Positions 7,003-25,802 are shown, numbered from the stretch's first letter. The stretch is DNA of 26,821 nucleotides from a virus (IMGVR_UViG_2740892230_000038), one strand, 5' to 3'. Program-made: numbers and translations. The notes: generated by a model from the letters alone, not told the origin.

Positions 7003-8006
7003 ACCCTTGCTCCTTTCAGCCCAAACTTAGCTTTAATTTCTGCGATCTTCGCCAGCGCCTGAACACGATTTAGAGGTCTGCCGCCCATGACAGGAAGTTG
7101 TTTTACTGGTTCAGGGATCGCCTCACCACGGTTAATTCTCGCAGTCATATGGACAAGCTCATCTGCGGCCTTACGGCGTAATTCCGCATCAGTAAGCGCA
7201 TTGGCCCGCATGTTCTGATACAGGTTGGTAACCAGCCAGTAGTGCGCGTTTGATTTCCACGGATAAGACTCCGCATCCGGATACAGGCCTCGCTTCCGGC
7301 AATACTNNNNNNNNNNTATCGTCTCACCACGGTTAATTCGCGCTGTCATACAGGTCAGTTCATCGGCAGCCTTGCGCCGTAATTCCGCGTCAGTCAGCGC
7401 ATTGGCCCGCATGTTCTGGTACAAGTTGGTAACCAACCAGTAATGCGCGTTCGATTTCCACGGATAAGACTCTGCATCCGGATACAGGCCTCGCTTCCGG
7501 CAATACTCGTAAACCATATCAACCAGCTCGCTGACGTTTGGCAGTCCGGCGATAACGGATGCTTCTTCCCGGCACCATGCAACAAACTGCCCGGGTGATG
7601 GCAGAAATGGTCGATTCTGCCGACGGGCTACGCGCATTCNNNNNNNNNNCCCGGCGTTAACAGATGCTTCTTCCCGGCACCAGGCGACAAACTGCCCGGG
7701 TGATGGCAGGAATGGTCGATTCTGCCGACGGGCTACGCGCATTCCAGCGTTAACCTGTTCCATTGTGGTGATCCCGTTTTCCCGGAAAGCCAGAACCCAC
7801 TGGCGGCGGATTTCGTTCAGTTCATTCTGGTCACGGTTAGCCAGGCTCGCCGGGAAAGTTGCCAGTAACTGGCTGAACACACCGTTGATGATCTGCGCTA
7901 CCTGCTGTACCTGTGGCTTTTCGTCGTACTGTTCCGGCATGTTGTTGGCGATCCTACGCATCTGCTCACGGTCAAAGTTAACCATCTGTGCGGCGATGTT
8001 TTTCAT
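6999..8006 (-). CDS. P: Replication protein P (DnaB loader); reading frame inflated by two N10 runs and duplicated variant blocks
   Basis: MKNIAAQMVNFDREQMRRIANNMPEQYDEKPQVQQVAQIINGVFSQLLATFP... to ...AKIAEIKAKFGLKGARV matches recalled lambda P; N-runs at 7307-7316 and 7640-7649 each flanked by variant repeats of the same P segment. Confidence 0.8.
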   Translation of the reverse strand: MKNIAAQMVNFDREQMRRIANNMPEQYDEKPQVQQVAQIINGVFSQLLATFPASLANRDQNELNEIRRQWVLAFRENGITTMEQVNAGMRVARRQNRPFLPSPGQFVAWCREEASVNAGXXXXMRVARRQNRPFLPSPGQFVAWCREEASVIAGLPNVSELVDMVYEYCRKRGLYPDAESYPWKSNAHYWLVTNLYQNMRANALTDAELRRKAADELTCMTARINRGETIXXXXYCRKRGLYPDAESYPWKSNAHYWLVTNLYQNMRANALTDAELRRKAADELVHMTARINRGEAIPEPVKQLPVMGGRPLNRVQALAKIAEIKAKFGLKGARV

Positions 8007-9372
8007 AAATCCACCCCGTAAATCCAGTCAGTGTTTGTCAGGTCGAGTTTTGGTTTTCCAGCTGTCACGCCAGCCTGTTGCTTGTTACGGTTGANNNNNN
8101 NNNNATCCACCCCGTAAATCCAGTCTGTGTTTGTCAGGTCGAGTTTTGGTTTGCTGGCTGTCACGACTGCCTGTTGCTTGTTACGGTTGATTTCGAGCTG
8201 GGTCCACTTGTCGCGGANNNNNNNNNNGCCGGCTATCACGCCAGCCTGTTGCTTGTTTCGGTTGATTTCGAGCTGGGTCCACTTGTCGCGGAGTTTGGCC
8301 GGACTTAGCACGTTACCGGACCAGAAGTTGTCCTGGCATGCCCAGCGGAACAGCACGCACATGTCGCGGTGGTTACGTCCGTCACGTTCACGCATCAGGC
8401 GGATATCGTTAGCCCACCCTGCAAAATTCGGTTTTCTGGCTGATGGCGCGATGGTCTTCACCATGTCAAACATCCACTCTGCGGCGGTCAGGTCTTCTGC
8501 TGTCCCCCACTTGCTGCCGCTCTGAATCGCAGCATCCGGTTTCACCACAGGAAGGGCATTTTCTGGCTGGTCAGAGGATTCGTCAGAATTCTCGGACGAA
8601 AAAGGTTTTATATTGTCTTTTGTTAGTTTGTCTTTTGTGTTTACCTGATTCGGGTAAGTGCCTTTACCTGATTTGGGTAAACTTTTCTTACCTGACTCAG
8701 GTAAATTTACCTCTTTCAGGTAAACTTTATNNNNNNNNNNACGCCTTTACCTGATGTGGGTAAACTTTTTTTACCTGATTCAGGTAAATTTACCTCTTTC
8801 AGGTAAACTTTATTTTTCTTACCTGATTCGGGTAATGTTGACCATTCACTGACCACATTATTGATGCCGATATTCCGCCCGCTCTGAATAAGAATCCCAC
8901 GCTTTACCAGAACGCTTTTTGCAGCAGAACACTTGTGCGGCAATATCCNNNNNNNNNNAATGCCGGTATTCCGCCCGCTCTGAATAAAAATCCCACGCTT
9001 TACCAGAACACTTTTTGCAGCAGAACACTTGTGCGGCAATATCCCGGTTAATTCGGAAAGTTGCTCGTTGCTAACCCAATCCAGTTTTTTATTAAAGCCA
9101 TATGTTTTGCGCATGACAGCCAGAAAGACCAGAAGCTGGTGCTGTGTTAATCCGGCCAGCATCACAGCTTCCAGCAACTCATTTGCAATGCGCGTATAAC
9201 CATCATCGAGATCTGCCACGCGCGGCTCCTTTTGTACCGCATCCGGCACTGGAAAATTGAATATCTCAGCAGTGTTTGCCATAATTCCTCCCGCAATGAG
9301 TGTGTTACGATTTGCACCTGAAAGTCGGTTCTGTTCCAGCAGACCGGCTTTCGCCATTTCTGAACCTGTCAT
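8003..9372 (-). CDS. O: Replication initiator O, mosaic: non-lambda iteron-binding N-terminus, lambda-like C-terminus; interrupted by N10 runs
   Basis: C-terminal part (...VKPDAAIQSGSKWGTAEDLTAAEWMFDMVKTIAPSARKPNFAGW...TNTDWIYGVDL) matches recalled lambda O; N-terminal part (MANTAEIFNFPVPDAVQKEPRVADLDDGYTRIANELLEAVMLAGLTQHQLLVFLAVMRKTYG...) differs from lambda; iterons embedded in the coding sequence. Confidence 0.7.
8641..8835. repeat. Origin iterons (17-bp TTACCTGANNCGGGTAA-type repeats) inside the O gene
   Basis: ttacctgattcgggtaa, ttacctgatttgggtaa, ttacctgactcaggtaa, ttacctctttcaggtaa and further copies; adjacent AT-rich tract 8600-8640; copy count inflated by the N-run at 8731-8740. 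Confidence 0.6.
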
Positions 9373-10125
9373 ATTGCCCCCAGCATGGTGGTGACCATCG
9401 CCATCAGTGGACCAGCCAGATCCGGGTCCACACGAAACATCGACACAATGCCTTCACTCATCTCCTTCAGTTTCTGGTGGCGTGGTGCGTTGAGAANNNN
9501 NNNNNNCGCCCCCAGCATGGTAGTAACCATCGCCATCAATGGACCAGCCAGATCTGGGTCCACACGAAACATCGACACAATACCTTCACTAATTTCCTTC
9601 AGTTTCTGGTGGCGTGGTGCGTTGAGAATGACAGCCTGTTTTGCCTCACTGAGTTCCTTTTCCATTTCAGCCAACCTAGCCATGAAGCTATCCTGCTCAA
9701 CCAGGTAACCGCGATATTCCAGCGGTAGTACCGCCAGAATTGNNNNNNNNNNGCCGAGCCATGAAGCTATCCTGCCCAACCAGGTGGCCGCGATATTCCA
9801 GCGGTAGTACCGCCAGAATTGCCGGGGTCAGTTCACGCACGTTATTTCGGTATTTTTCAGAATCGAATTTGTTATCGAGGAAGCGGAACAGCTTCTGGCG
9901 TGCACGGCTGACATCATCAGGGAAATCGATGGTGCCGCCGCCCTGCTCCCGATACTCATTCACAATGAGTGTGGCAACGACATCCTGATTATCTACAGCC
10001 GACCAGGCGCGGACGGCATCACGGATTTTTTCGTGGCCTGGCACCTGTTTTGTTTGAGAACGATTTATCACCGCAGTCGGGCTAAATCCGCTAGTCTGTT
10101 GGTATGTAAGTGATTGCATAGTCAT
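9369..10125 (-). CDS. YdaT-like protein at the cII position; frame interrupted by N10 runs and duplicated blocks
   Basis: MTMQSLTYQQTSGFSPTAVINRSQ... with motif TPAILAVLPLEYRGHL resembling recalled Rac YdaT; between the cro-like gene and O; stop overlaps O start (ATGA). Confidence 0.5.
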
Positions 10126-10149
10126 TGCCTTATCAGTTAACGCCGCAGT

Positions 10150-10377
10150 TTAGGCGGCAGAATTACTCGCGTTAAACAATGGTGCGAGGTCGGGACGAAT
10201 ATCTGCTGGTTTAATCTTTCCACCAGTGGCTGAGACAATTTTCATTACATAGCGGGCATCAATTCCGCCACCGTGTAGCCAACGCCAAACAGTGGGTTGG
10301 GCTACACCGCATAGATCTGCCAGTCGTTTTTGACTACCTGTAATACTGATTGCGAGTTGAATGGTTTGATTTGTCAT
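10150..10377 (-). CDS. Cro-like/YdaS-like HTH regulator (immunity type 1)
   Basis: MTNQTIQLAISITGSQKRLADLCGVAQPTVWRWLHGGG...; small HTH protein divergent from a cI-like gene. Confidence 0.6.
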   Translation of the reverse strand: MTNQTIQLAISITGSQKRLADLCGVAQPTVWRWLHGGGIDARYVMKIVSATGGKIKPADIRPDLAPLFNASNSAA

Positions 10378-10487
10378 TATCAATTCCTATTGGTATTGCA
10401 ATGAATAGATAATAGCAATGCGTATTAACCCAATCAATAGCAAAACGTGTTTTGACCATCAATACGCAAGCGTATAAATTAAAACTT

Positions 10488-10769
10488 ATGAAAAAAGAAA
10501 CTCTTGCTGATCGCTTAAACCTAGCGATGGAACAATCTGGAATGTCTCAAGGCGCTCTTGCAAAGGCGTCTGGCGTAGCTCAACCCACAATCTGGAGACT
10601 GACAAGCGGCAACGCGCGCGGCTCAACAAAAATTGTTGAAATAGCTAATGCATTGGGTGTTCGAACTGAGTGGCTCTCATCAGGCATAGGCCCGATGAGA
10701 AATGACGGTCAACAATCAGGGAAGCCTGCTGTCAACCATTCCAAATACTTCAAGATTGACGTTCTTGAT
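10488..10769 (+). CDS. CI-like repressor (immunity type 1), N-terminal HTH part only; truncated by N-run at 10770
   Basis: MKKETLADRLNLAMEQSGMSQGALAKASGVAQPTIWRLTSGNARGSTKIVEIANALGVRTEWLSSG...NHSKYFKIDVLD then Ns; HTH-XRE type. Confidence 0.55.
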
Positions 10770-10855
10770 NNNNNNNNNNGTTGCATAATTGACTCCTTTA
10801 GTTTGAATTGACTGTTAAGTTGATTGCTTATTGTTAAAGAGCGTGAAATGGAAAT

Positions 10856-11086
10856 TTAAGCTGCGTTCTTTTCGGTGTGTGGAAACAACTTCGGAAGATC
10901 CGGGCGAATCTGGTATGCCTTCACTACTCCACCAGTAGCCGTAACAATGCTGCCGACATGTTCAGGGGATACCTTTGCTTTGTTGTGAAGCCACTTATAG
11001 ACGGCCTGCTGTGAAACTTCGCAAGCAGCGCCCAGTTTCTTTTGTGAACCAACGATATTGATCGCTGTTTTGATAGCTGGGTTCAT
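10856..11086 (-). CDS. Cro-like/YdaS-like HTH regulator (immunity type 2)
   Basis: MNPAIKTAINIVGSQKKLGAACEVSQQAVYKWLHNKAKVSPEHVG...; homologous to the ORF at 10150-10377; divergent from cI-like gene at 11191. Confidence 0.6.
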   Translation of the reverse strand: MNPAIKTAINIVGSQKKLGAACEVSQQAVYKWLHNKAKVSPEHVGSIVTATGGVVKAYQIRPDLPKLFPHTEKNAA

Positions 11087-11124
11087 AACAACCTCCGTGG
11101 TTAATTTGAATCAAGATTAAAACT

Positions 11125-11149
11125 ATGGTTGTTTTTAGTCAACAACCAT
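11125..11149. promoter_or_regulatory. Candidate operator: perfect 9-bp inverted repeat ATGGTTGTT-N7-AACAACCAT between cro-like and cI-like genes
   Basis: Read directly in the divergent intergenic region; a related half-site ggttgt occurs at 11174-11179. Confidence 0.35.
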
Positions 11150-11190
11150 TTTCGTTTGATGGGATAAAACCTTGGTTGTACATTTGGACT

Positions 11191-11880
11191 ATGAAAACAA
11201 CACTCTCAGAAAGACTTAAAGAAGCCAGATTAGCGCGAGGCCTTACACAAAAGGCGCTTGGGGATTTGGTCGGGGTTAGCCAGGCTGCTATTCAGAAAAT
11301 CGAAACAGGGAAAGCTAATCAAACAACTAAAATCGTGGAGATCGCGAACGCTTTGGGTGTGCGCGCAGAATGGTTATCTTCTGGCGTTGGAAATATGTCA
11401 GACAGTACAGTGCAACCAATACAATCAACTGTCAGCCATTCCAAATACTTCAAGATTGACGTTCTTGATATAGAAGTCAGTGCTGGGCCGGGAGTCATCA
11501 ACCGTGAGTTTGTAGAAGTTCTACGCTCGGTTGAGTACTCGTTTGACGATGCTCGTCACATGTTCGATGGTAGGAAGGCGGAAAATATCCGCATCATTAA
11601 CGTGCGTGGTGACAGCATGTCAGGAACGATCGAACCAGGTGATCTGCTGTTCGTTGATATCACAGTTAAATCTTTCGACGGTGATGGTATCTATGCGTTT
11701 CTGTACGACGACACAGCCCATGTAAAGCGCCTGCAAATGATGAAGGATAAGCTGCTGGTCATCTCTGATAACAAAAGCTACTCACCGTGGGACCCGATCG
11801 AGAAAGACGAGATGAACCGGGTGTTCATCTTCGGTAAGGTTATTGGGAGCATGCCGCAGACGTATAGGAAGCATGGGTAG
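11191..11880 (+). CDS. CI-like repressor (HTH-XRE N-terminus, LexA/S24-like C-terminal domain), immunity type 2
   Basis: MKTTLSERLKEARLARGLTQKALGDLVGVSQAAIQKIETGKANQ...; C-terminal ...NVRGDSMSGTIEPGDLLFVDITV...HVKRLQMMKDKLLVISDNKSY typical of S24 autocleaving repressors. Confidence 0.8.
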   Translation: MKTTLSERLKEARLARGLTQKALGDLVGVSQAAIQKIETGKANQTTKIVEIANALGVRAEWLSSGVGNMSDSTVQPIQSTVSHSKYFKIDVLDIEVSAGPGVINREFVEVLRSVEYSFDDARHMFDGRKAENIRIINVRGDSMSGTIEPGDLLFVDITVKSFDGDGIYAFLYDDTAHVKRLQMMKDKLLVISDNKSYSPWDPIEKDEMNRVFIFGKVIGSMPQTYRKHG

Positions 11881-11941
11881 CCATACAATAGAAGTTTTAA
11901 GATTTAAGACAATATCGTAAATTAACTGTATATGTGATCAG

Positions 11942-12895
11942 GTGAATGCCATAATGGATGCGGGCAACAATTCGGAAACCAATGATATGAAGTTCAGGAT
12001 AGTATACGACGGTCCGGCACTGGAAACGCATGAAATGAACGTGCGAGACCTTGCTCCTGCCCTTCTATCACTATCAGATGCATTAGAGGAAGCCGGTAAA
12101 ACTCTCTACGGAAACAAGACTGTTGTTTCTGTAAAAGTCAATGCATCATTTAAAGCTGGCTCATTTGGAATAGATCTGGTTGCCTCATCTACATCTTGGT
12201 TCAAACAGGCTGTTGATTTTTTATCCGGCGATTCAGCAACAGCCGCTGCGAATTTGATTGCTTTTATTGGACTCTGTCCTGGTTCTAAAGAAAAAATATG
12301 CAAAGGCCTAATTCAACTGATAAAATGGATAGGTCCAAGGAAAATAAAAAAATTACACAATTTGCCTGATAGCAACATCGAAGTCTTTGTTGATGACGAA
12401 AGCGAGATCTACGACAGTAACGTTATTGAACTTTATAAAAATATTAAACTTCGCTCTTCATTACAAGAAGTTATAAGTAAGCCATTAGAGCAGGAAGGCA
12501 TTGACAGCTTTGCCTCTACTGTCGATGATGGTTTGACATTCATGACGATCAACAAGCAAGAAGCACATTATTTCAAAGTCAATCTACCAGCAGAATCAAT
12601 AATTTCAGAGTACACAGTAGAGAAAGCCCTTCAAATTAAAAATATTTCCTTCAATGAAGGAAGCCGGTGGCGGTTTTCTGATGGTGCCAGTAGCTTTTTG
12701 GCTGAAATAAAAGACCAGAAATTCATCAGCGATATTGATAACAACACCTTAAATTTTTCTAAAGGTGATATGTTACTTGTAGATTTAAAAGTAACTCAAT
12801 ATATGATCGGAGATGCCATAAAAACCATATTCGAAATTGAGCATGTAAAAAAACAGTTGAATCCTCAAAGGCAAATAGATCTTCCATTCGAATAA
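11942..12895 (+). CDS. Hypothetical protein at the rex (post-repressor) position; AT-rich cargo gene
   Basis: 317-aa ORF (GTG at 11942; alternative ATG starts at 11954 and 11987) immediately downstream of cI-like gene and 5 nt upstream of tImm-like terminator; no family recognised. Confidence 0.6.
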   Translation: MNAIMDAGNNSETNDMKFRIVYDGPALETHEMNVRDLAPALLSLSDALEEAGKTLYGNKTVVSVKVNASFKAGSFGIDLVASSTSWFKQAVDFLSGDSATAAANLIAFIGLCPGSKEKICKGLIQLIKWIGPRKIKKLHNLPDSNIEVFVDDESEIYDSNVIELYKNIKLRSSLQEVISKPLEQEGIDSFASTVDDGLTFMTINKQEAHYFKVNLPAESIISEYTVEKALQIKNISFNEGSRWRFSDGASSFLAEIKDQKFISDIDNNTLNFSKGDMLLVDLKVTQYMIGDAIKTIFEIEHVKKQLNPQRQIDLPFE

Positions 12896-12900
12896 AGATA

Positions 12901-12927
12901 CCCGGCCACCGTGCCGGGTTTTCTTTT
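12901..12927 (+). terminator. tImm-like rho-independent terminator
   Basis: cccggc-caccgt-gccggg followed by ttttctttt; homologous copies at 19075-19101 and 16078-16103. Confidence 0.6.
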
Positions 12928-13011
12928 GCCTCCCCTCATCACACAAACCGTTCAAAAAACCACCACGACCTCGCTTCAGTTATCGCTATGCGATTCAAGT
13001 CNNNNNNNNNN

Positions 13012-13534
13012 AAAGATCGTTTTCTGGCTGGTCAGAGGATTCGCCAGAATTCTCGGACGAATAATCTTTTCTTTTTTCTTTTGTAATAGTGTCTTTTGTG
13101 TCCCCCTGTTTTGAGGGATAGCAATCCCCCAATTTGAGGGATGTTTTATCCCTCGTTTTAGGGGATTTTCCCTCGTTTTGAGGGATGCACCATTCTGAGA
13201 TGTTTTTATTTGGTCCAAACATGCCGCCTTGCTGCTTGATAATATTCATTCTGACGAGTTCTAACTTGGCTTCATTGCACCGTTTGACAGGTAACTTTGT
13301 AATCTCGCTAAGTTGAGAATCGGTGATTCTGTCCATTGGTTTATTCCACCCATAGGTTTTACGCAGAATGGCAAGCAGCACTTTAAACTGTCGCTTGGTC
13401 AGATCTGCGCCTGAATAAGCCTCAATCAGCATATTTGATAGTCTGGCGTAACCATCATCGAGATCTGCCACATTACGCTCCTGTTCGGCAAAGTTACCTC
13501 TGCCGAAGTTGAGTATTTTTGCTGTATTTGTCAT
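13012..13534 (-). CDS. O: Lambda-type O protein N-terminal (ori-binding) domain; 3' end cut by N-run at 13002-13011
   Basis: MTNTAKILNFGRGNFAEQERNVADLDDGYARLSNMLIEAYSGADLTKRQFKVLLAILRKTYGWNKPMDR...SSDQPENDL matches recalled lambda O N-terminus. Confidence 0.7.
13101..13186. repeat. ori-lambda iterons (four ~19-bp repeats) inside the O coding sequence
   Basis: tccccctgttttgagggat, atcccccaatttgagggat, atccctcgttttaggggat, tccctcgttttgagggat; flanked by AT-rich tract at 13060-13100. Confidence 0.7.
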
Positions 13535-13566
13535 AATGACTCCTGTTGATAGATCCAGTAATGACC

Positions 13567-13860
13567 TCAGAACTCCATCTGGATTTGTTCAGAACGCTCG
13601 GTTGCCGCCGGGCGTTTTTTATTGGTGAGAATCGCAGCAACTTGTCGCGCCAATCGAGCCATGTCGTCGTCAACGCCCCCCCATTCAAGAACAGCAAGCA
13701 GCATTGAGAACTTGGGAATCCAGTCTCTCTTCCACCTGCTGATCTGCGACTTATCAACTCCCACAGCTTCCGCTGTCTTCTCAGTTCCAAGCATTGCGAT
13801 TTTGTTAAGCAACGCACTCTCGATTCGTAGTGCCTCGTTGCGTTTGTTTGCACGAACCAT
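13567..13860 (-). CDS. cII: Transcriptional activator CII
   Basis: MVRANKRNEALRIESALLNKIAMLGTEKTAEAVGVDKSQISRWKRDWIPKFSMLLAVLEWG...SEQIQMEF matches recalled lambda CII. Confidence 0.9.
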   Translation of the reverse strand: MVRANKRNEALRIESALLNKIAMLGTEKTAEAVGVDKSQISRWKRDWIPKFSMLLAVLEWGGVDDDMARLARQVAAILTNKKRPAATERSEQIQMEF

Positions 13861-13939
13861 ATGTAAGTATTTCCTTAGATAACAATTGATTGAATGTATG
13901 CAAATAAATGCATACACCATAGGTGTGGTTTAATTGGAT

Positions 13940-13971
13940 GCCCTTTTTCAGGGCTGTGATGTGTAAGAGCG
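13940..13971 (-). promoter_or_regulatory. nutR (boxB hairpin plus boxA)
   Basis: On minus strand boxA cgctcttacac and boxB gccctgaaaaagggc, immediately downstream of cro. Confidence 0.6.
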
Positions 13972-13978
13972 GTGTTAT

Positions 13979-14188
<210 letters not shown>

Positions 14189-14205
14189 TTAGTACATGCA
14201 ATTAT

Positions 14206-14269
14206 TATCACCGCTAGAGGTAAAACAGTCAACACGCACGGTGTTAGATATTTATCCCTTGCGGTGATA
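14206..14269. promoter_or_regulatory. Right operator OR1-OR2-OR3 with pR/pRM
   Basis: 17-mers tatcaccgctagaggta (OR1), caacacgcacggtgtta (OR2), tatcccttgcggtgata (OR3) between cro and cI. Confidence 0.8.
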
Positions 14270-14276
14270 GATTTAA

Positions 14277-14993
<717 letters not shown>

Positions 14994-15043
14994 TGATAAG
15001 TCGCCGAGATGCTCGTAGAGCATACAGCGATGCAGGAGAATTT

Positions 15044-15478
15044 ATGGCACTTAATTTAGAAAGAATATCTTTTATAACCCCATTTGATAGCAGCGAAGAA
15101 CCCAACCAACCGACGCTTAATTTTACATGCAATGAATTTCCTGCGCGGCTATCAATTGATTTCAGGGTTGGTATGATCGGGTTGAAACCAAATTCAAGAT
15201 ATAATTTGGGTATTATGGTAATCCCCGCGCACCTAATTATAAAAAAAGGTGAGGAAATTCAATTCCCTGACGGCTCTTCGGAATCAGTTTCACTTTTCAT
15301 CGATACGAAAGATAGCCATTTTGAAACAGGGGTTGGCGGACAGGTAATAGTAACATTGAAAGAAATTAGGGTCCCAGCTAAAGGGCTGTATAGTGTTATA
15401 GGGAGATTGCAAGATAATGAAGACCCTAAAAATGAACTTCATAAAAATGAATCATTTTTCACCGTAGAGCTATTATGA
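15044..15478 (+). CDS. Hypothetical soluble protein, first gene of a two-gene cassette at the rex position (not RexA-like)
   Basis: ATG at 15044 preceded by aggag SD (alternative GTG/ATG at 14990/14993 overlapping cI stop); 144 aa; AT-rich; stop overlaps next gene start (ATGA). Confidence 0.6.
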   Translation: MALNLERISFITPFDSSEEPNQPTLNFTCNEFPARLSIDFRVGMIGLKPNSRYNLGIMVIPAHLIIKKGEEIQFPDGSSESVSLFIDTKDSHFETGVGGQVIVTLKEIRVPAKGLYSVIGRLQDNEDPKNELHKNESFFTVELL

Positions 15479-16077
15479 GTGACGACAGCAATTTAAATAA
15501 TCATGGAAAGCAAGACACCAACATATCTGAAAGCCGGAGGTTGAAGGTTGTTGGCGGTTCCGATTTTGAGGCTGAATTTGATAATTCTCCCACCAAGGTG
15601 CAAAATAATTACATAAAACCGCCACAAACGGAGGAAGAAGTGGGAACGATCAGCAGAGAGGAACTTGATGCTCGCTTAGCTGCTAATAAAGCAGAGATGG
15701 AGTCTATTGCTTCTTCCATTAGGGCTGACATGGCTCTATCTCGTGAAAGCGTTAATGTCCAATTTGCATCACTTAATGCGGCCATAAGCTCTCTATCGTC
15801 CAAGATCGATGGAAAAATGGATAGCGCTGCTGGCGATTTAAAAGCAATTAATGGGAGATTCGAAGGAATTCAAGGACAAATAACAGGGGTTAATACCGCA
15901 ATTAGTGGTGTTCAGTCGGGTATTTCTATACGATTAGCCATTTTTAGTGTCATTATCGCTGTAATAGTTGCGATTCCCGGGCTGGTATCAGCTTTAAAGT
16001 CAGACCACGCACCTTTGCAAGCGCCGCCACAAAATACCCAGCCAACAGACAACAAAAAAATCACTCCCCAGCATTAA
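15475..16077 (+). CDS. Hypothetical tail-anchored membrane protein (Ser/Ala-rich coiled-coil-like region plus single C-terminal TM helix), second gene of rex-position cassette
   Basis: 200-aa ORF; hydrophobic segment LAIFSVIIAVIVAIPGLVSAL near C-terminus; repetitive region ...ASLNAAISSLSSKIDGKMDSAAGDLKAINGRFEGIQGQITGVNTAISGVQSG...; unlike the polytopic RexB as recalled. Confidence 0.6.
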   Translation: MSDDSNLNNHGKQDTNISESRRLKVVGGSDFEAEFDNSPTKVQNNYIKPPQTEEEVGTISREELDARLAANKAEMESIASSIRADMALSRESVNVQFASLNAAISSLSSKIDGKMDSAAGDLKAINGRFEGIQGQITGVNTAISGVQSGISIRLAIFSVIIAVIVAIPGLVSALKSDHAPLQAPPQNTQPTDNKKITPQH

Positions 16078-16103
16078 CCCGGCCTCAGCGCCGGTTTTTC
16101 TTT
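16078..16103 (+). terminator. tImm-like terminator after the cassette
   Basis: GC stem ccggc...gccgg followed by tttttcttt; homologous to 12901-12927 and 19075-19101. Confidence 0.5.
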
Positions 16104-16260
16104 GCCTCACGATCGCCCCACCTAAAAACACATAACCAATTGTATTTATTGGAAAATAAATAGATACAACTCACTAAACAACGCAATTCTGATCTCTCCT
16201 TACATCGCCGAGGCAATACACTCACTCGAAAAAATAAATCCATATAAAAAACATACAGAT

Positions 16261-16322
16261 AACCATTTGCGGTGATAAAATATCTCTAGCGGTGTTGACA
16301 CAAATACCACTAGCGGTGATAC
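16261..16322 (+). promoter_or_regulatory. Left operator OL3-OL2-OL1 with pL
   Basis: aaccatttgcggtgata, tatctctagcggtgttg, taccactagcggtgata; -35 ttgaca and -10 gatact. Confidence 0.8.
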
Positions 16323-16374
16323 TTAGCCCGTCAGCAGGACGCACTAACCACCATTGAAGGTGAGGCTCTTAAAA

Positions 16375-16404
16375 ATTTAGCCCTGAAGAAGGGCAGCATT
16401 CAAA
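16375..16404 (+). promoter_or_regulatory. nutL (boxA plus boxB hairpin)
   Basis: gctcttaaaaatttagccctgaagaagggc; boxB stem-loop gccctgaagaagggc. Confidence 0.65.
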
Positions 16405-16504
16405 GCAGAAAGCTTTGAGTAGCGCGAAATGCAGCTGCAAGACAGCAACCGTGGGGATAAGCATCACGGCGCGTTACTCAAAGCTAACTGACAGGAGAAT
16501 CCAG

Positions 16505-17402
<898 letters not shown>

Positions 17403-17524
17403 TTAAAAGACAGGCACAATCTTTACTACCGCAATCCACTATTTAAGGTGATATATGGAAGAAGAATTTGAAGAGTTCGAAGAGCATCCTCAGGATGTGA
17501 TGGAACAATACCAGGACTATCCGT

Positions 17525-17725
17525 ATGACTACGACTATTGATAAAAATCAATGGTGTGGACAATTCAAGCGATGCAATGGATGCAAGCTGCAATCGAAAT
17601 GCATGGTTAAGCCTGAAGAAATGTTTCCTGTAATGGAAGATGGGAAATATGTCGATAAATGGGCAATACGAACGACGGCAATGATTGCCAGAGAACTTGG
17701 TAAACAGAACAACAAAGCTGCCTGA
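17525..17725 (+). CDS. ral: Restriction alleviation protein Ral
   Basis: MTTTIDKNQWCGQFKRCNGCKLQSKCMVKPEEMFPVMEDGKYVDKWAIRTTAMIARELGKQNNKAA matches recalled lambda Ral. Confidence 0.85.
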   Translation: MTTTIDKNQWCGQFKRCNGCKLQSKCMVKPEEMFPVMEDGKYVDKWAIRTTAMIARELGKQNNKAA

Positions 17726-17861
17726 TAGTGGCCTTTATTTTTGGCATAAATAACAGAATAAACACTGCACTGTGTATTCATTCCAACGAGTGAATACACG
17801 GAGCAATGTCGCTCGTAACTAAACAGGAGCCGACTTGTTCTGATTATTGGAAATCTTCTTT

Positions 17862-17887
17862 GCCCTCCAATGTGAGGGCGATTTTTT
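17862..17887 (+). terminator. Rho-independent terminator (tL1-like)
   Basis: gccctc-caatgt-gagggc followed by gatttttt. Confidence 0.5.
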
Positions 17888-17907
17888 ATCTGTGAGGATA
17901 TGAACAG

Positions 17908-18408
17908 ATGTCAAACATCAAAAAATACATCATTGATTACGACTGGAAAGCATCAATAGAAATTGAAATCGACCATGACGTAATGACAGAGGAAAAACTT
18001 CACCAGATTAATAATTTCTGGTCAGACTCTGAATACCGACTCAATAAACACGGCTCTGTATTAAATGCTGTATTAATCATGCTGGCGCAACATGCTCTGC
18101 TTATAGCAATTTCGAAAGACTTAAATGCATATGGTGTTGTTTGTGAGTTCGACTGGGATGATGGAAATGGTCAGGAAGGATGGCCTCCAATGGATGGAGG
18201 TGAAGGAATAAGAATTACCGATATCGATACATCAGNNNNNNNNNNAAGCGACTTAAATGCATATGGTGTTGTGTGTGAGTTCGACTGGAATGATGGAAAT
18301 GGTCAGGAAGGATGGCCTTCAATGGATGGTAGCGAAGGAATAAGAATTACCGATATCGATACATCAGGAATATTTGATTCAGATGATATGACTATCAAGG
18401 CCGTCTGA
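17908..18408 (+). CDS. Ea10-position hypothetical protein; length inflated by N-run 18236-18245 and a duplicated variant block
   Basis: MSNIKKYIIDYDWKASIEIEIDHDVMTEEKLHQINNFWSDSEYRLNKHG...; segment DLNAYGVVCEFDW(D/N)DGNGQEGWP... present twice around the N-run; lies between ral and cIII. Confidence 0.5.
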   Translation: MSNIKKYIIDYDWKASIEIEIDHDVMTEEKLHQINNFWSDSEYRLNKHGSVLNAVLIMLAQHALLIAISKDLNAYGVVCEFDWDDGNGQEGWPPMDGGEGIRITDIDTSXXXXSDLNAYGVVCEFDWNDGNGQEGWPSMDGSEGIRITDIDTSGIFDSDDMTIKAV

Positions 18409-18480
18409 GTGCGGTTTTACCGCATACCAATAACGCTTCACTCGAGGCGTTTTTCGTTATGTATAAATAAGGAGCACACC

Positions 18481-18645
18481 ATGCAATATGCCATTGCAGG
18501 GTGGCCTGTTGCTGGCTGCCCTTCCGAATCTTTACTTGAACGAATCACCCGTAAATTACGTGACGGATGGAAACGCCTTATCGACATACTTAATCAGCCA
18601 GGAGTCCCAAAGAATGGATCAAATACTTATGGCTATCCAGACTAA
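18481..18645 (+). CDS. cIII: CIII (FtsH/HflB inhibitor)
   Basis: MQYAIAGWPVAGCPSESLLERITRKLRDGWKRLIDILNQPGVPKNGSNTYGYPD matches recalled lambda CIII; aaggag SD. Confidence 0.85.
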   Translation: MQYAIAGWPVAGCPSESLLERITRKLRDGWKRLIDILNQPGVPKNGSNTYGYPD

Positions 18646-18757
18646 ATTCACTATCGCCACTTTTATTGGCGATGAAAAGATGTTTCGTGAAGCCGTCGAC
18701 GCTTATAAAAAATGGATATTAATGCTGAAACTGAGATCAAGCAAAAGCATTCACTAA
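18614..18757 (+). CDS. kil: Kil (host-killing/division inhibitor)
   Basis: MDQILMAIQTKFTIATFIGDEKMFREAVDAYKKWILMLKLRSSKSIH (47 aa) overlapping cIII end as in lambda. Confidence 0.8.
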   Translation: MDQILMAIQTKFTIATFIGDEKMFREAVDAYKKWILMLKLRSSKSIH

Positions 18758-18802
18758 CCCCCTTTCCTGTTTTCCTAATCAGCCTGGCATTTNNNNNNNN
18801 NN

Positions 18803-18953
18803 TCTGCAAATGATGAAGGATAAGCTGCTGGTTATCTCTGATAACAAGAGCTACTCACCTTGGGACCCGATCGAGAAAGACGAGATGAACCGGGTGTTCA
18901 TCTTCGGTAAGGTTATTGGGAGCATGCCGCAGACATATAGGAAGCATGGGTAG
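18803..18953 (+). CDS. CI-like repressor C-terminal fragment (variant copy following an N-run)
   Basis: About 96 percent identical at DNA level to 11730-11880 (…LQMMKDKLLVISDNKSYSPWDPIEKDEMNRVFIFGKVIGSMPQTYRKHG); followed by a cargo-free spacer and tImm. Confidence 0.5.
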
Positions 18954-19074
18954 TACCAATTAAAAATTATCAACTGGGCATTGTGCTCATTCAGTAAAGA
19001 ACTAATTCCTATCTTTGCTCTAGGTAGTAATATTAAGCCACCGCAATAATATCTTTACCTAACGGCGTAAGAAT

Positions 19075-19101
19075 CCCGGTCACCGTGCCGGGTTTTCTTT
19101 T
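19075..19101 (+). terminator. tImm-like rho-independent terminator (cargo-free context)
   Basis: cccgg-tcaccgtg-ccggg followed by ttttctttt; downstream 80 bp homologous to 12928-13001. Confidence 0.5.
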
Positions 19102-19855
19102 GCCCTCCCCTCATCACACACACACCGTTAAAAAAACCACCATAACCTCGCTTCAGTTATCGCTATGCGATTCAAGTCACAAAATTAATTCTTTTTGCCA
19201 TCAAACATTTAATAGCAAAACACATCTAACAATAGCAATAAGTATTAATATCACCAATAGCAATAGCTATTATCACCATGTCGCAACAACACAACGATAC
19301 GGCAACCACCTGATTCACCGTTGCGATGACCGCTTAGATCCNNNNNNNNNNAAATCCATCCTAAATACAACCAGTTATATCTAAAACAACCAATAAAACA
19401 ACTTTTGTTGTTGACGATAAAACAACTATAGTTTTAAATAAGTTCATCGCAACAACACAACGATACGGCAACTACCTGATTCACCGTTGCGATGACCGCT
19501 TAGATCCGCAGTTTGAATTTCAGCAGGCTTCGGGGAGTGCGAGGGGTGAAACGGACGCGTGAACGTCGGTGTGACCAGCTGAAATCAACTCAACACTTCA
19601 TACCTCAGTTGCTTCAACGAGGCGACTTAGTTATGACAACCGGCGGCCATCCACCGCCAGATACTGCGCAACCCCTTATTTGTTCAGCAGCCCAGCTTAC
19701 GGGCAGGAGTTTTTNNNNNNNNNNTAACTCAACATTTCATACCTTAGTCGCTTCAACGAGGCGGCTTAGTTATGACAACCGGCGGCCATCCACCGCCTGA
19801 ATACGCGCAGAAGTCTCTATATGTTCAGCAGCCCAGCTTACGGGCAGGAGTTTTT

Positions 19856-20062
19856 ATGGTTCATCAACATTATGGAACGCAGACCGTTAATCGAGGTGCG
19901 GTCATGCCAGGAATGCTGGTCAAACACAAAGATGGTACCTGGACTGCATCAGCTAATTTACGCGGACGGCTTTATCTGCATCGCGGCATCGAGCGCACTT
20001 ATACCCGTGATTTGCTCGTGGAAGTTTTTCTCGACGGACGCGGCAACGGCCTGAATCACTAA
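19856..20062 (+). CDS. Hypothetical small protein at the kil position, upstream of gam
   Basis: 68-codon ORF MVHQHYGTQTVNRGAVMPGMLVKHKDGTWTASANLRGRLYLHRGIERTYTRDLLVEVFLDGRGNGLNH with aggag SD 6 nt upstream; ends just before the conserved gam leader. Confidence 0.45.
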   Translation: MVHQHYGTQTVNRGAVMPGMLVKHKDGTWTASANLRGRLYLHRGIERTYTRDLLVEVFLDGRGNGLNH

Positions 20063-20137
20063 TCCCCTTTCCTGTTTACCTAATCAGCCTGGCATTTCGC
20101 GGGCGATATTTTCACAGCCATTTTCAGGAGTTCAGCC

Positions 20138-20434
20138 ATGAACGCTTATTACATTCAGGATCGTCTTGAGGCTCAGAGCTGGGCGCGTCACTACCAGCAG
20201 ATCGCCCGTGAAGAGAAAGAGGCAGAACTGGCAGACGACATGGAAAAAGGCCTGCCCCAGCACCTGTTTGAATCGCTATGCATCGATCATTTGCAACGCC
20301 ACGGGGCCAGCAAAAAAGCCATTACCCGTGCGTTTGATGACGATGTTGAGTTTCAGGAGCGCATGGCAGAACACATCCAGTACATGGTTGAAACCATTGC
20401 TCACCACCAGGTTGATATTGATTCAGAGGTATAA
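20138..20434 (+). CDS. gam: Gam (RecBCD inhibitor), short form
   Basis: [60 protein letters not shown]...[10 protein letters not shown] matches recalled lambda Gam. Confidence 0.9.
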
Positions 20435-20439
20435 AACGG

Positions 20440-21225
20440 ATGAGTACAGCACTCGCAACGCTGGCAGGGAAGCTGGCTGAACGTGTCGGCATGGATTCTG
20501 TCGACCCACAGGAACTGATCACCACTCTTCGCCAGACGGCATTTAAAGGTGATGCCAGCGATGCGCAGTTCATCGCATTGTTGATCGTCGCCAACCAGTA
20601 CGGCCTTAATCCGTGGACGAAAGAAATTTACGCCTTCCCTGATAAGCAGAACGGCATCGTTCCGGTGGTGGGCGTTGATGGCTGGTCCCGCATCATCAAT
20701 GAAAACCAGCAGTTTGATGGCATGGACTTTGAGCAGGACAATGAATCCTGTACATGCCGGATTTACCGCAAGGACCGTAATCATCCGATCTGCGTTACCG
20801 AATGGATGGATGAATGCCGCCGCGAACCATTCAAAACTCGCGAAGGCAGAGAAATCACGGGGCCGTGGCAGTCGCATCCCAAACGGATGTTACGGCATAA
20901 AGCCATGATTCAGTGTGCCCGTCTGGCCTTCGGATTTGCTGGTATCTATGACAAGGATGAAGCCGAGCGCATTGTCGAAAATACCGCATACACTGCAGAA
21001 CGTCAGCCAGAACGCGACATCACTCCGGTTAACGATGAAACCATGCAGGAGATTAACACTCTGCTGATCGCCCTGGATAAAACATGGGATGACGACTTAT
21101 TGCCGCTCTGTTCCCAGATATTTCGCCGCGACATTCGCGCATCGTCAGAACTGACACAGGCCGAAGCAGTGAAAGCTCTTGGATTCCTGAAACAGAAAGC
21201 CACTGAGCAGAAGGTGGCAGCATGA
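20440..21225 (+). CDS. bet: Bet (Red-beta single-strand annealing protein)
   Basis: 261-aa [77 protein letters not shown]... matches recalled lambda Bet. Confidence 0.9.
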
Positions 21226-21975
21226 CACCGGACATTATCCTGCAGCGTACCGGGATCGACGTGAGAGCTGTCGAACAGGGGGATGATGCATGGCACAAAT
21301 TACGGCTCGGCGTCATCACCGCTTNNNNNNNNNNTGCATCGTCAGAACTGACACAGGACGAAGCAGTGAAAGCTCTTGGATTCCTGAAACAAAAAGCTAC
21401 TGAACAGAAGGTGGCAGCATGACACCGGACATTATCCTGCAGCGTACCGGGATCGACGTGAGAGCTATCGAGCAGGGAGATGATGCGTGGCACAAATTAC
21501 GGCTCGGCGTCATCACCGCTTCAGAAGTTCACAACGTGATAGCAAAGCCCCGCTCAGGAAAGAAGTGGCCTGACATGAAAATGTCCTACTTCCACACCCT
21601 GCTGGCTGAGGTTTGCACCGGTGTGGCTCCGGAAGTTAATGCTAAGGCGCTGGCCTGGGGAAAACAGTACGAGAACGACGCCAGAACCCTGTTTGAATTC
21701 ACTTCCGGCGTGAATGTTACTGAATCCCCGATCANNNNNNNNNNTACTACAGAACGTCAGCCGGAACGCGACATCACCCCGGTTAACGAAGAGACCATGT
21801 CGGAAATTAACGCCCTTCTTACTTCCATGGAAAAAACGTGGGATGACGACCTCTTGCCGCTCTGTTCCCAGATATTTCGCCGCTACATTCGAGCGTCGTC
21901 AGAACTGTCCCAGGCCGAAGCAGAGAAGGTTCTTGGATTCCTGAAACAGAAAGCCACGGAGCAGAAGGTGGCAGC

Positions 21976-22830
21976 ATGACACCAGAAATTATCCTACAAC
22001 GTACCGGGATCGACGTGAGAGGTGTCGAGCAGGGAGATTATGCATGGCAAAAATTACGGCTCGGGGTCATCACAGCTTCAGAAGTTCACAACGTGATAGC
22101 CAAACCCCGCTCCGGAAAGAAATGGCCTGACATGAAAATGTCCTACTTCCACACCCTGCTGGCTGAGGTCTGCACGGGTGTGGTCCCGGAAGTTAACGCC
22201 AAAGCCCTGGCATGGGGAAAACAGTACGAGAACGACGCCAGAGCCCTGTTTGAGTTTACTTCCGGCGTGAATGTTACTGAATCCCCGATCATCTATCGCG
22301 ACGAAAGTATGCGTACCGCCTGCTCTCCGGATGGATTATGCAGTGACGGCAACGGCCTTGAGCTGAAATGTCCGTTTACCTCCCGGGATTTCATGAAATT
22401 CCGGCNNNNNNNNNNCACCGCCTGCTCTCCCGATGGTTTATGCAGTGACGGCAACGGCCTTGAACTGAAATGCCCGTTTACCTCCCGGGATTTCATGAAG
22501 TTCCGGCTCGGTGGTTTCGAGGCCATAAAATCGGCTTACATGGCCCAGGTGCAGTACAGCATGTGGGTGACGCGAAAAGATGCCTGGTACTTTGCCAACT
22601 ATGACCCACGAATGAAGCGTGAAGGCCTGCATTATGTCGTGGTTGAGCGGGATGAAAATTACATGGCGAGTTTTGACGAGATGGTGCCGGAGTTCATCGA
22701 AAANNNNNNNNNNATTGAGCGGAATGAAAAGTACATGGCGAATTTTGACGAGATGGTGCCGGAGTTCATCGAAAAAATGGACGTGGCACTGGCTGAAATT
22801 GGTTTTGTATTTGGGGAGCAATGGCGATGA
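21976..22830 (+). CDS. exo: Exo (lambda exonuclease); frame inflated by N-runs at 22406-22415 and 22704-22713 with duplicated blocks
   Basis: [65 protein letters not shown]...GFVFGEQWR; ATGA overlap with preceding bet-end copy; additional partial bet-end/exo-start variant copies at 21222-21324, 21335-21734 and 21745-21979. Confidence 0.85.
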
Positions 22831-22985
22831 AGCATCCTCACGATAATATCCGGGTAGGCGCGATCACTTTCGTCTACTCCGTTACAAAGCGAGGCTGGGT
22901 ATTTCCCGGCCTTTCTGTTATCAGAAATCCACTGAAAGCACAGCGGCTGGCTGAGGAGATAAATAATAAACGGGAGAGTGTATGA
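22827..22985 (+). CDS. Small hypothetical ORF downstream of exo
   Basis: 52 codons [52 protein letters not shown] translated by hand; ATGA overlaps with exo stop and with next gene start; a variant of its 3' end recurs at 23804-23855. Confidence 0.4.
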
Positions 22986-23734
22986 TTCATTTTCACGGTG
23001 GTCCAATAACTCCCGATACCTGTGCGTTGAAAGCCTGGAAAGGCAGACACGCATTCATCAGTTTTGCTAATCCAGCTCAGATTGATCTGGCTTCCGAAGT
23101 CACCCAATCATTTGCTCTTGATAATGGTGCATTCACATTCTGGACAAAAAACAAGGCCGTAGACTGGAATAAATATTACAGATTTGTTGAACGCTGGGGT
23201 AATCACCCTCGTTTCTCATTCGCGGTTATCCCGGATGTTATCGGCGGAACCAGTGAAGAGAATGACGCCCTGATTGCGGCATGGCCTCACGGTAAATTTA
23301 TTGGTGCTCCGGTGTGGCACATGAACGAACCAGATGAGCGATTTATTCGTCTGTGCCATGAGTTTCCCCGCGTCTGCATCGGCTCGATGGGGGAATGCGA
23401 TGCAAAACGACCGAGAGCGTGTCGGGCTAAACTACGCGATCTTATACGTCATGTTGTAGATCAGTACGGCTACCCAATCACCAAGATTCATGGGTTACGG
23501 ATGTTAAATAAAGACATTTTTACTCATGTACCGCTTTCGTCTGCAGACAGCACGAACGTCGCAAGAAATATAGGCATCGACAAATCCTGGGTAGGTTCGC
23601 CATATGCTCCCGCAAGTAAAGAAACCCGTACGCAAGTTCTTGTGGAACGCATTGAATCATTCAACAGTGCCAGTTCACTTAATTACAATGCTGAACGGGA
23701 CGTCTTTACCCCTCAACTGGCATTCGAAGTGTGA
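22982..23734 (+). CDS. Hypothetical 250-aa protein (Cys cluster CHEFPRVCIGSMGECDAKRPRAC), variable cargo downstream of exo
   Basis: ORF with ATGA coupling to upstream small ORF; no family recognised by eye. Confidence 0.55.
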   Translation: MIHFHGGPITPDTCALKAWKGRHAFISFANPAQIDLASEVTQSFALDNGAFTFWTKNKAVDWNKYYRFVERWGNHPRFSFAVIPDVIGGTSEENDALIAAWPHGKFIGAPVWHMNEPDERFIRLCHEFPRVCIGSMGECDAKRPRACRAKLRDLIRHVVDQYGYPITKIHGLRMLNKDIFTHVPLSSADSTNVARNIGIDKSWVGSPYAPASKETRTQVLVERIESFNSASSLNYNAERDVFTPQLAFEV

Positions 23735-23854
23735 GGCCAATATGACAATAGAACATAATAACGCCCTTCGCAGCATTGCCCGTCAGGCTAATTNNNNNNN
23801 NNNGCTGAAAGCCCAGCGGCTGGCTGAGGAGATAAATAATAAACGAGGGGCTGT

Positions 23855-24046
23855 ATGCACAAAGCATCTCCTGTTGAGTTAAGAACGAGCATTGAGATTG
23901 CACATAGCCTTGCTCAAATTGGAGTCAGGTTTGTGCCAATACCAGTAGAAACAGACGAAGAATTTCATACGTTAGCCGCATCCCTTTCACAAAAGCTGGA
24001 AATGATGGTGGCGAAAGCAGAAGCAGATGAGAGAGACCAGGTATGA
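23855..24046 (+). CDS. Hypothetical small acidic protein (alternative occupant of the post-exo slot)
   Basis: 63-aa ORF MHKASPVELRTSIEIAHSLAQIGVRF... preceded by gagggg SD; follows N-run 23794-23803. Confidence 0.4.
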   Translation: MHKASPVELRTSIEIAHSLAQIGVRFVPIPVETDEEFHTLAASLSQKLEMMVAKAEADERDQV

Positions 24047-24122
24047 CAACCACGGAATGCATTTTTCTGGCAGCGGGCTTCATATTCTGTGTGCTTATGC
24101 TTGCCGACATGGGACTTGTTCA

Positions 24123-24338
24123 ATGACACCTCAGCAGGAAAACGCCCTTCGCAGCATTGCCCGTCAGGCTAATTCTGAAATCAAAAAAGCCAGACAGCAG
24201 TTTCCGGATAAAAACGTCGATGACATTTGCCGTAGCGTACTGAAGAAGCACCGCGAAACGGTAACGCTGATGGGATTCACACCGACTCATTTAAGCCTGG
24301 CGATCGGCATGTTAAACGGCGTCTTTAAGGAACGATGA
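24123..24338 (+). CDS. Hypothetical small protein (ALRSIARQAN-containing)
   Basis: MTPQQENALRSIARQANSEIKKARQQFPDKNVDDICRSVLKKHRETVTLMGFTPTHLSLAIGMLNGVFKER; a variant 5' end (MTIEHNNALRSIARQAN) occurs at 23742-23793 before an N-run; start codon uncertain. Confidence 0.4.
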   Translation: MTPQQENALRSIARQANSEIKKARQQFPDKNVDDICRSVLKKHRETVTLMGFTPTHLSLAIGMLNGVFKER

Positions 24339-24436
24339 ACATGAAAAGCAAAATCATCAGGGAGCTACAGGCTCCTTTTTTATTATTCGCATTCACCCTC
24401 AAGCGTATTAACCAACAATTCAGGGATTAATGGAAG

Positions 24437-24593
24437 ATGGCAGACATCATTGATTCAGCATCAGAAATTGAAGAATTACAGCGCAATACAGCAATAAAAA
24501 TGCGTCGTCTGAACTACCAGACTATATCCGCCACTCATTGTTGTGAGTGTGGCGATCCCATAGATGAACGAAGACGCCTGGTCGTTCAGGGTT
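24437..24593 (+). CDS. TraR/DksA-like C4 zinc-finger protein, 3' end cut by N-run
   Basis: MADIIDSASEIEELQRNTAIKMRRLNYQTISATHCCECGDPIDERRRLVVQG; CxxC followed by basic patch, typical of phage TraR-like proteins. Confidence 0.5.
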
Positions 24594-25180
24594 NNNNNNN
24601 NNNAACTGCTCCGGTAGCTCCAAGGCGGAGGTGCTGGAAAATATCAAAAACAATTTCGACGCGTTTCTTGCTCTGACACCAGAAACAAAAGCAGAACGGA
24701 TGTACCGACGCGATATACAACTCGCGCTAAAACAGGAGAAGGACCGAACAAACGAAACAGCAATGAGACCGTTGCGAAAAGCGACAATAGACAAATTCCC
24801 TGAATATATCGACCCGCGCCTGCGTAATTACCGCTCACGCTATGGCGCTATCAGTAATGACTGAGGAATTTACCATGAGAGGACTTGCATACAATCCCGG
24901 CATTCTTCCGGCAGAAATGATTATTCGCCAACGCGTAAAGCCAATGCCCTCGAGAGAGGAATTGCTTAAGAGAAAGAGTTTCGGTTCTGTTAATGACAAC
25001 AAATATCTGAATGCGATGTTGCGCAAAGGAGGCAACCAGTGAGCAAAATTGACTATCAGGCACTGCGTGAGGCGGCAGTAGCAATTGAANNNNNNNNNNG
25101 ATCGAACTTAAGAACAAACAATGGGGACTGTGATGGCCTCAAAGCAGCAAATTTCAACATCGTCCAACTGAGGTGTAAAA

Positions 25181-25459: not shown

Positions 25460-25802
25460 GGCCTGTCAGTTTCTTAAGATATCCAGACCAACCGCCACCA
25501 ACTGGATACGAACAGGCCGCCTACAGGCAACACGTAAAGATCCAACCAAGCCAAAATCTCCTTACCTCACAACACGGCAAGCCTGCATTGCGGCGCTTCA
25601 GTCTCCGCTGCATACTGTCCAGGTGAGCGCGGGTGATGGCATAACAGAGGAAAGAAAATGTCACTCTTCCGCAGAAATGAAATATGGTATGCCTCGTATT
25701 CGCTCCCGGGCGGGAAACGAATTAAGGAATCTCTTGGCACAAAGGACAAGCGGCAAGCTCAGGAGTTGCACGACAAGCGAAAAGCAGAACTCTGGCGAGT
25801 AG
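25431..25802 (+). CDS. xis: Excisionase-like (AlpA/Xis-type HTH) protein; 3' extent uncertain, frame overlaps int
   Basis: [57 protein letters not shown]...; aggtaacc SD; immediately upstream of integrase. Confidence 0.5.

Follow-up and report, generated by a model that had tools for sequence, protein, structure and literature searches.

The 26,821 nucleotides (nt) of the viral sequence IMGVR_UViG_2740892230_000038, here called the window, hold the early region of an Escherichia coli lambdoid prophage (nmpC/ompC, quuD, rusA, ybcK, emrE, ren, P, O, immunity genes, kil/gam/bet/exo and an integrase of 387 amino acids, aa), but interrupted by runs of N, most of them flanked by diverged copies of the same sequence. 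Are these copies tandem duplications within one prophage, or were they created when the sequence was assembled? Very probably they are an assembly artefact carried in a public draft, in which alternative branches of a de Bruijn graph built with k = 35 were laid out in series by Velvet-style scaffolding, and correspond to no real feature. An earlier note, made from the sequence, had already read the pattern as joins between related lambdoid prophages and not as tandem duplication. That reading is borne out by the draft record from which the window derives, by reference intervals that overlap from one block to the next, by matches of neighbouring blocks to different prophages, by a boundary rule fitting k = 35, and by the occurrence of the arrangement in none of 5,426 complete genomes.

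The N content of the window consists of 21 runs of exactly 10 N each (21 of 21), with no further N. Their first bases lie at 7307, 7640, 8095, 8218, 8731, 8949, 9497, 9743, 10770, 13002, 18236, 18793, 19342, 19715, 21325, 21735, 22406, 22704, 23794, 24594 and 25090, and they delimit 22 segments, S0 to S21. An all-against-all comparison of the segments, tabulated with one row per junction, sorts the joins as follows.

Flush, 13 of 21 joins (7307, 7640, 8095, 8218, 8731, 8949, 9497, 9743, 18236, 19715, 21325, 22406 and 22704): the left end recurs at the start of the next segment over 61-191 nt, with 89.5-96.5% identity.
Offset, 4 of 21 joins (10770, 19342, 21735 and 23794): the last 34-399 nt are found again, 95-649 nt into the next segment.
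Later segment, 2 of 21 joins: the left end recurs only further on, that at 13002 in S12 and that at 18793 in S14.
No repeat of the left end in any segment of the window: the joins at 24594 and 25090.

A repeat across the N run, flush or offset, is found in 17 of 21 joins, and every junction between copies in this record is an N run, none being continuous. The earlier note had listed all 21 runs correctly, but it placed a repeat right after every one of them; this holds at the 13 flush joins and, with the repeat set back into the next segment, at the 4 offset joins, and fails at 13002 and 18793, where the repeat lies in a later segment, and at 24594 and 25090, where there is none. Its blocks of the P gene near 7307 and 7640 and of the interior of exo near 22406 and 22704 reappear in the segment comparison, as does its threefold junction of bet end and exo start, with overlapping bet stop/exo start sites at 21222 (S14), 21419 (S15) and 21976 (S16). 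The stretch 1-7306 is contiguous as it had said (segment S0). The stretch 13012-18792 is not, being broken by the run at 18236, so that the true contiguous stretch is 13012-18235.

The exact positions at which segments begin and end follow a simple rule. At 15 of 21 left ends the closing stretch is found again downstream without a mismatch over exactly 34 nt, the 35th base being different every time. Exact runs of exactly 34 occur at 0.6% of positions, given an allele identity of 91.7%, and the chance of finding at least 15 of 21 is about 3e-29. The right segments have no exact 34-nt prefix match (the longest is 21 nt), but for 14 of the 21 the 34 nt that precede their start in the matching real prophage occur exactly in a segment of the window, followed there by a different base, and in 12 of those 14 cases the 34-mer is in the immediate left neighbour. 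The rule can also be put as a k-mer test: for a boundary to count as predicted, the k-mer that has the boundary base as its last letter must be private, and the k-mer next to it must be shared. Applied with four real prophages only (L001, which is the DLP12-type prophage of CP010117, and L005, L011 and L012, the loci at 4.45, 1.02 and 1.36 Mb of CP027544), k = 35 predicts 52 of 75 testable boundaries, while k = 31, 33, 37 or 39 predicts only 13-18. Both boundaries of S16 are predicted from the sharing of 35-mers.

A signature of this kind would arise as follows. The sequenced E. coli would carry several lambdoid prophages, about 88-97% identical in P, O, the sequences flanking the immunity region, bet and exo, and in a graph with k = 35 these paralogues would form chains of bubbles, an arm starting at its first private base and ending 34 nt (k-1) after its last private base. 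No single path would be resolved, and read pairs from the near-identical stretches would place the nodes at a distance of about zero or below it. Because no single path was found, and yet read pairs called the nodes neighbours, the nodes would be concatenated with a fixed minimal buffer of 10 N, the right-hand node being printed without its first k-1 bases. Most joins would then be the two arms of one bubble in series, and the irregular joins would likewise serialise alternative branches of the graph.

Merging of this type is documented for the Pebble scaffolder, in which read-pair neighbours that lack a path in the graph are merged with an N buffer, many of the buffers being very short (PMC2793427). 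The window resembles Velvet/Pebble (Zerbino et al. 2009, PMC2793427) in this merging of pathless neighbours, with boundaries that obey k-1 = 34, and departs from it in that the buffer length of the paper is a distance estimate and the 21 buffers here are all exactly 10. Three points are inferred: the use of Velvet, a minimum gap of 10 N in its output, and a single genome as the source of all alleles. In Velvet's convention a node is stored without the k-1 prefix, which fits the right segments here. The uniform 10 N is attributed to what we take to be Velvet's minimum printed gap; a search of the literature for a citable source of such a minimum found none, only irrelevant uses of "10 Ns." (Scaffolding of the SPAdes type is less likely, the 34 nt being even and present on the left end only; SPAdes uses odd k and lets contigs overlap by k, and both contigs would keep the shared ends.)

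Contigs might instead have been ordered on a reference prophage or genome after assembly, whether with a separate tool or by the submitter, and joined with a 10-N spacer, the assembler's own paired-end scaffolder playing no part. The spacer is indeed 10 N throughout, and the order of the segments is almost monotonic in reference start coordinate. Such concatenation is nonetheless unlikely, because the right nodes lack the k-1 prefix and the segments do not keep to coordinate order throughout. The right segments begin at the first private base without a shared 34-mer of their own, which by our reasoning suits node sequences concatenated within a graph of Velvet type, whereas separately exported contigs would have kept the 34-mer; and S16 (reference 18081) comes after S15 (18228), as S10 (14076) comes after S9 (15247).

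The record from which the window is taken is itself a draft. The window is identical, N runs included, to positions 607-27427 of the draft scaffold CCPR01000324.1 (GCA_000752855.1; 64,997 bp), which starts at the beginning of the essD lysis gene and passes, beyond the integrase gene, into the chromosomal fimZ and other fimbrial genes. Neither the 606 nt preceding the window nor 1.6 kb of chromosome after the integrase gene contains an N run. Two open reading frames (ORFs) that read through N runs, with XXXX in their translations, are each found on one public contig only, again CCPR01000324.1. (A junction pattern of 25 nt + 10 N + 25 nt gave 0 matches in the collections viral_contigs and genome_contigs, where N may not match literally or the record may be absent, and a search of the literature on CCPR01 / GCA_000752855 found nothing relevant.)

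Complete genomes hold the same genes in much less space. Positions 1-24593 of the window are colinear with only 13.9-15.7 kb in complete genomes, and coverage of at least 80% of the window at one place is found in 0 of 5,426 complete E. coli genomes. The reference intervals of consecutive segments overlap (S0 runs to 13307, S1 covers 13117-13439, S2 13345-13789, S3 13706-13818 and S4 13752-14254), and because they do, the repeats flanking a run are two alleles of one reference interval. Apart from the joins, the content is ordinary: lambda-type replication, immunity, antitermination, Red and integrase genes stand in lambdoid order, with homologues annotated in L001, L002 (the STEC388 prophage), L005, L011 and L012, and the Pfam families of the region include Phage_lambda_P, Phage_rep_O, Phage_CII, Cro, Peptidase_S24, N36, Ral, Lambda_CIII, Gam, RecT, YqaJ and Phage_integrase. 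Several complete genomes with a prophage like S10 (99.87%) have a single P (233 aa), a single O (299 aa) and a single exo (226 aa).

The origin of the alleles can be followed segment by segment, with the best matches given below (L009 is LM995475.1, GCA_000936635.1).

1-7306, S0: nmpC/ompC porin, quuD, ylcG, rusA, ybcO, ninE, ybcN, ybcK, emrE, ren and the 3' part of P; DLP12-type, 99.6% over 7,308 nt to L001; an exact copy of its last 34 nt stands at 7474 in S1.
7317-7639, S1: internal P allele of a different prophage; best match 98.5%, to L011 and L009; overlaps S0 by 191 nt, 88.5% identical ungapped and 89.5% by BLAST.
7650-8094, S2: 5' part of P and 3' end of O; 97.8% to L001, reference 13345-13789.
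8105-8217, S3: 113-nt allele of the 3' end of O from the imm-lambda prophage of argU type; 100% to L005-L010.
8228-8730, S4: allele of the C-terminal half of O; 99.2% to L012.
8741-8948, S5: mid-O allele; 98.5% to L012 and 98.1% to L001.
8959-9496, S6: 5' part of O and 3' end of ydaT; 98.3% to L001.
9507-9742, S7: ydaT allele; 100% to L001.
9753-10769, S8: 5' part of ydaT, a cro-like gene of YdaS type (Pfam YdaS_toxin on 10150-10383) and the start of a repressor gene; immunity region no. 1; 99.4% over its full length to L012, the part 10100-10769 being 99.9% to CP027544 at 1,357,921.
10780-13001, S9: cro-like gene, S24 repressor and a 317-aa PDC-S42-like gene; immunity region no. 2; 99.4% to L002 over 1,926 nt; its terminal 34-mer recurs at 19145 in S12, not in S10.
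13012-18235, S10: 5' part of O, cII, cro, cI, two ORFs, N, ral and the 5' part of a DUF2528 gene; lambda immunity, no. 3; 99.87% over 5,224 nt to L005, L004, L009 and L010.
18246-18792, S11: 3' part of the DUF2528 gene, cIII and kil; 99.3% to L011; overlaps S10 by 122 nt, 92.6% identical.
18803-19341, S12: 3' end of an S24 repressor and intergenic sequence, without the PDC-S42-like gene; 18803-18953 is 99.3% to L012, the whole 91% to L001.
19352-19714, S13: intergenic, upstream of a division inhibitor of kilR type; 98.9% (268 nt) to L012 and 96.2% to L001.
19725-21324, S14: division inhibitor, gam, bet and exo start; bet/exo copy 1; 99.8% to L001.
21335-21734, S15: bet end and exo start, copy 2; 99.75% to L009 and 99.5% to L012.
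21745-22405, S16: bet end and exo, copy 3; 100% to CP027544 1,019,879-1,020,539 (L011) and about 90% to the other alleles.
22416-22703, S17: allele of the 3' part of exo; 99.3% to L012.
22714-23793, S18: exo end, DUF1317 gene and a 250-aa hypothetical gene; 99.35% over 1,079 nt to L012.
23804-24593, S19: DUF1317/DUF1382, a hypothetical gene and the 5' part of a traR-like gene; 98.0% to L011 and 97.8% to L001.
24604-25089, S20: anti-RecBCD gene, DUF2737 gene and the start of an ead-like (ead/Ea22-like) gene; 100% to CP021339 and CP032805, whose annotation supplies the names, with Pfam DUF2737.
25100-26821, S21: DUF4222 gene and the 387-aa integrase of an argU-site prophage; 100% to L005, L006, L007 and L009, with the chromosome flank in L013.

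Neighbouring segments best match different prophages, and the window thus changes prophage type at its N runs. The complete genome of strain 2013C-3264, CP027544, is the top match for three different parts of the window, at three separate sites: the site at 1.02 Mb, adjoining mlrA, matches S16 (100%) and S11 (99.3%); the site at 1.36 Mb, adjoining torI/dsdC, matches S8 (99.4%, its immunity allele 99.9%) and S18 (99.35%); and the site at 4.45 Mb, of argU-site type, matches S10 (99.87%) and both S3 and S21 (100%). The DLP12-type L001 matches S0 (99.6%), S7 (100%) and S14 (99.8%). Three different immunity regions, in S8, S9 and S10, follow one another in the window. These matches point to five allele sources or more: a DLP12-type, an imm-lambda argU-site type, an mlrA-site type and a torI/dsdC-site type prophage, and a carrier of the anti-RecBCD module. 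A bet/exo query finds three places in CP027544, the same number as there are alleles in the window, and up to 5 per complete genome. The caution of the earlier note, that gene order across a run is not proven, can be put more strongly: where the close complete genome CP027544 is compared, the neighbours lie at different chromosomal sites.

The same artefact could also have been fed by a mixed sample, that is by more than one E. coli strain or by contamination of the culture, so that the alleles would not be paralogous prophages of one genome. S1, S2, S5, S6 and S19 are only 97.8-98.5% identical to any prophage examined, and the three CP027544 loci that were compared (those three only) are without a DLP12-type block like S0, both of which a mixture would accommodate. 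A mixture is quite unlikely, however, and need not be invoked, since three allele sets are found together in one complete genome: CP027544 alone has them at 99-100%, at three sites and with three bet/exo places, and complete genomes reach 5 such places.

Gene models suffer where the copies are read in series. An inflation of the ORFs across the runs had been claimed for P, O, YdaT-like, Ea10-like and exo alike. It is real for P, which is 335 aa in the window (6999-8006, minus strand, reading through N runs) compared with 233 aa in real prophages, for the DUF2528 or "Ea10-like" ORF, 166 aa (17908-18408, plus strand, reading through an N run) compared with 122 aa, and for exo, which lies in pieces of 66, 186 and 284 aa in place of one real gene of 226 aa; O and ydaT are instead split into pieces spread over the extra length. 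(The XXXX-containing 335-aa "P" and the 166-aa DUF2528 protein both sit in a large public protein collection, on one contig each.) Gene callers read through the joins because the inserted length stays in frame: at 10 of the 13 flush joins the duplicate and the 10 N together have a length divisible by three, for which the chance is about 0.002. The overlap at a flush join is the distance between two boundary single-nucleotide polymorphisms (SNPs) plus 35. If both boundary SNPs fell on the same position of a codon (the third being the most plausible), an overlap of 3m+35 would result, which the 10 N would bring to 3m+45.

Such frame-keeping, with long ORFs crossing the N runs, is also what might be cited for genuine tandem partial duplications within one prophage, the runs then being small unsequenced gaps. 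This explanation is exceedingly improbable. The arithmetic of the boundary SNPs would account for the frame; the boundaries follow the k-mer rule (P about 3e-29), the copies find their matches in different prophages, each at a chromosomal site of its own, three immunity regions stand in series, and the arrangement occurs in 0 of 5,426 complete genomes, the references having a single P, O and exo.

Several points weigh against the serialisation of graph branches from one polylysogenic genome, or at least against parts of it. The assembler, the value of k and the 10-N minimum are undocumented for CCPR01000324.1. Many segments are only 97.8-99.4% identical to their best reference, and for this reason the true source loci in the sequenced strain are inferred from relatives: the separate chromosomal origin of the alleles is shown in those relatives, not in the source strain. 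Six left ends (8095, 18793, 22406, 22704, 24594 and 25090) depart from the 34-nt rule, with exact suffix matches of 22, 19, 33, 9, 0 and 0 nt. Some joins rest on read-pair links or on unseen alleles, because two joins share no sequence at all; the six exceptions presumably reflect alleles outside this scaffold, tips trimmed for errors, or pure read-pair links. For S20 (486 nt), a comparison with L001-L012 finds nothing matching beyond 52 nt. Nothing visible supports the position given to S20 in the scaffold, since neither of the flanking joins shares sequence with it.

The window can be set beside two other familiar situations. In diploid assemblies with uncollapsed haplotypes, both arms of a heterozygous bubble are retained, so that tandem duplications appear that do not exist and gene models are inflated or duplicated. 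The window likewise holds two diverged alleles of one locus side by side, but its alleles would be paralogues in the prophages of one haploid genome (or possibly those of mixed strains), with up to 3-4 per site. The other is the mosaicism of lambdoid prophages, as in Shiga-toxin-type E. coli, DLP12, lambda and HK542. The segments are ordinary early-region DNA, found at 98-100% identity in complete genomes or phages, and genomes do carry several such prophages with common P/O and Red modules; real lambdoid prophages, however, have a single P of 233 aa, an O of 299 or 339 aa, an exo of 226 aa and one immunity region, and the window has 2-3 partial copies and three immunity regions. A second record deserves mention here. 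In LM995475.1 (L009), a single N at position 5392 stands where a block of mlrA-site type (99.8% to L011) abuts one of argU type (99.9% to L005), and P-O-cII occurs twice within 5 kb. This is probably a chimeric join of the same class, with another spacer.

Some further genes lie within the segments, most of the non-reference ORFs being without a family in Pfam and PADLOC.

4518-6632, minus strand, S0: large serine recombinase ybcK (Resolvase, Recombinase, Zn_ribbon_recom) and the multidrug transporter emrE, between the nin region and ren; known DLP12 cargo.
11942-12895, plus strand, S9: 317-aa ORF that directly follows the S24-type repressor; no Pfam family, and a match (3.4e-86) to PDC-S42, one of PADLOC's candidate defence families.
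14990-16077, plus strand, S10: two ORFs between the lambda-type cI and N, of 162 aa (GTG start; 144 aa in other genomes) and 200 aa.
16821-17324, minus strand, S10: 167-aa ORF between N and ral with CxxC motifs near its C-terminus (142-164 aa in related genomes); no Pfam or PADLOC family.

The scaffold contains versions of the PDC-S42 site both with and without the gene, since S9 carries it and S12 (18803-19341), where the 3' end of the repressor is joined to downstream DNA lacking the 317-aa gene, does not. The two ORFs at 14990-16077 occupy the site of rexA/rexB in lambda. Both stay below the Pfam gathering scores and are without a PADLOC family. The protein of 200 aa is common, with entries in 1,321 blocks of a protein-to-contig index, and the module is also found in phages HK542 and HK244, where its annotation goes no further than hypothetical proteins of the immunity region. 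The module is a candidate cassette for exclusion or defence, although that it should prove an undescribed one is improbable. Improbable to the same degree, and a separate matter, is that part of the linkage running from S0 through S10 to S21 is physical, with a DLP12-type and an imm-lambda prophage in tandem or recombined at argU. If it were, the trouble that the assembler had would point to a locus where polylysogeny or recombination is real.

A chimeric scaffold thus stands in GenBank, and artificial proteins with XXXX have passed from it into public collections, so that the record carries a warning about data quality: prophage typing, synteny, gene-length and "novel fusion" analyses will all be misled if they take in entries of this kind. 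It is also a clean example of paralogous prophages serialised by a short-read scaffolder, and the combination of a 34-nt match at the left end with a first private base at the right provides a simple test for such joins. For the biology of the prophages the meaning is nil: duplicated blocks, over-long ORFs (P, exo and DUF2528) and serial immunity regions alike are very probably products of scaffolding.

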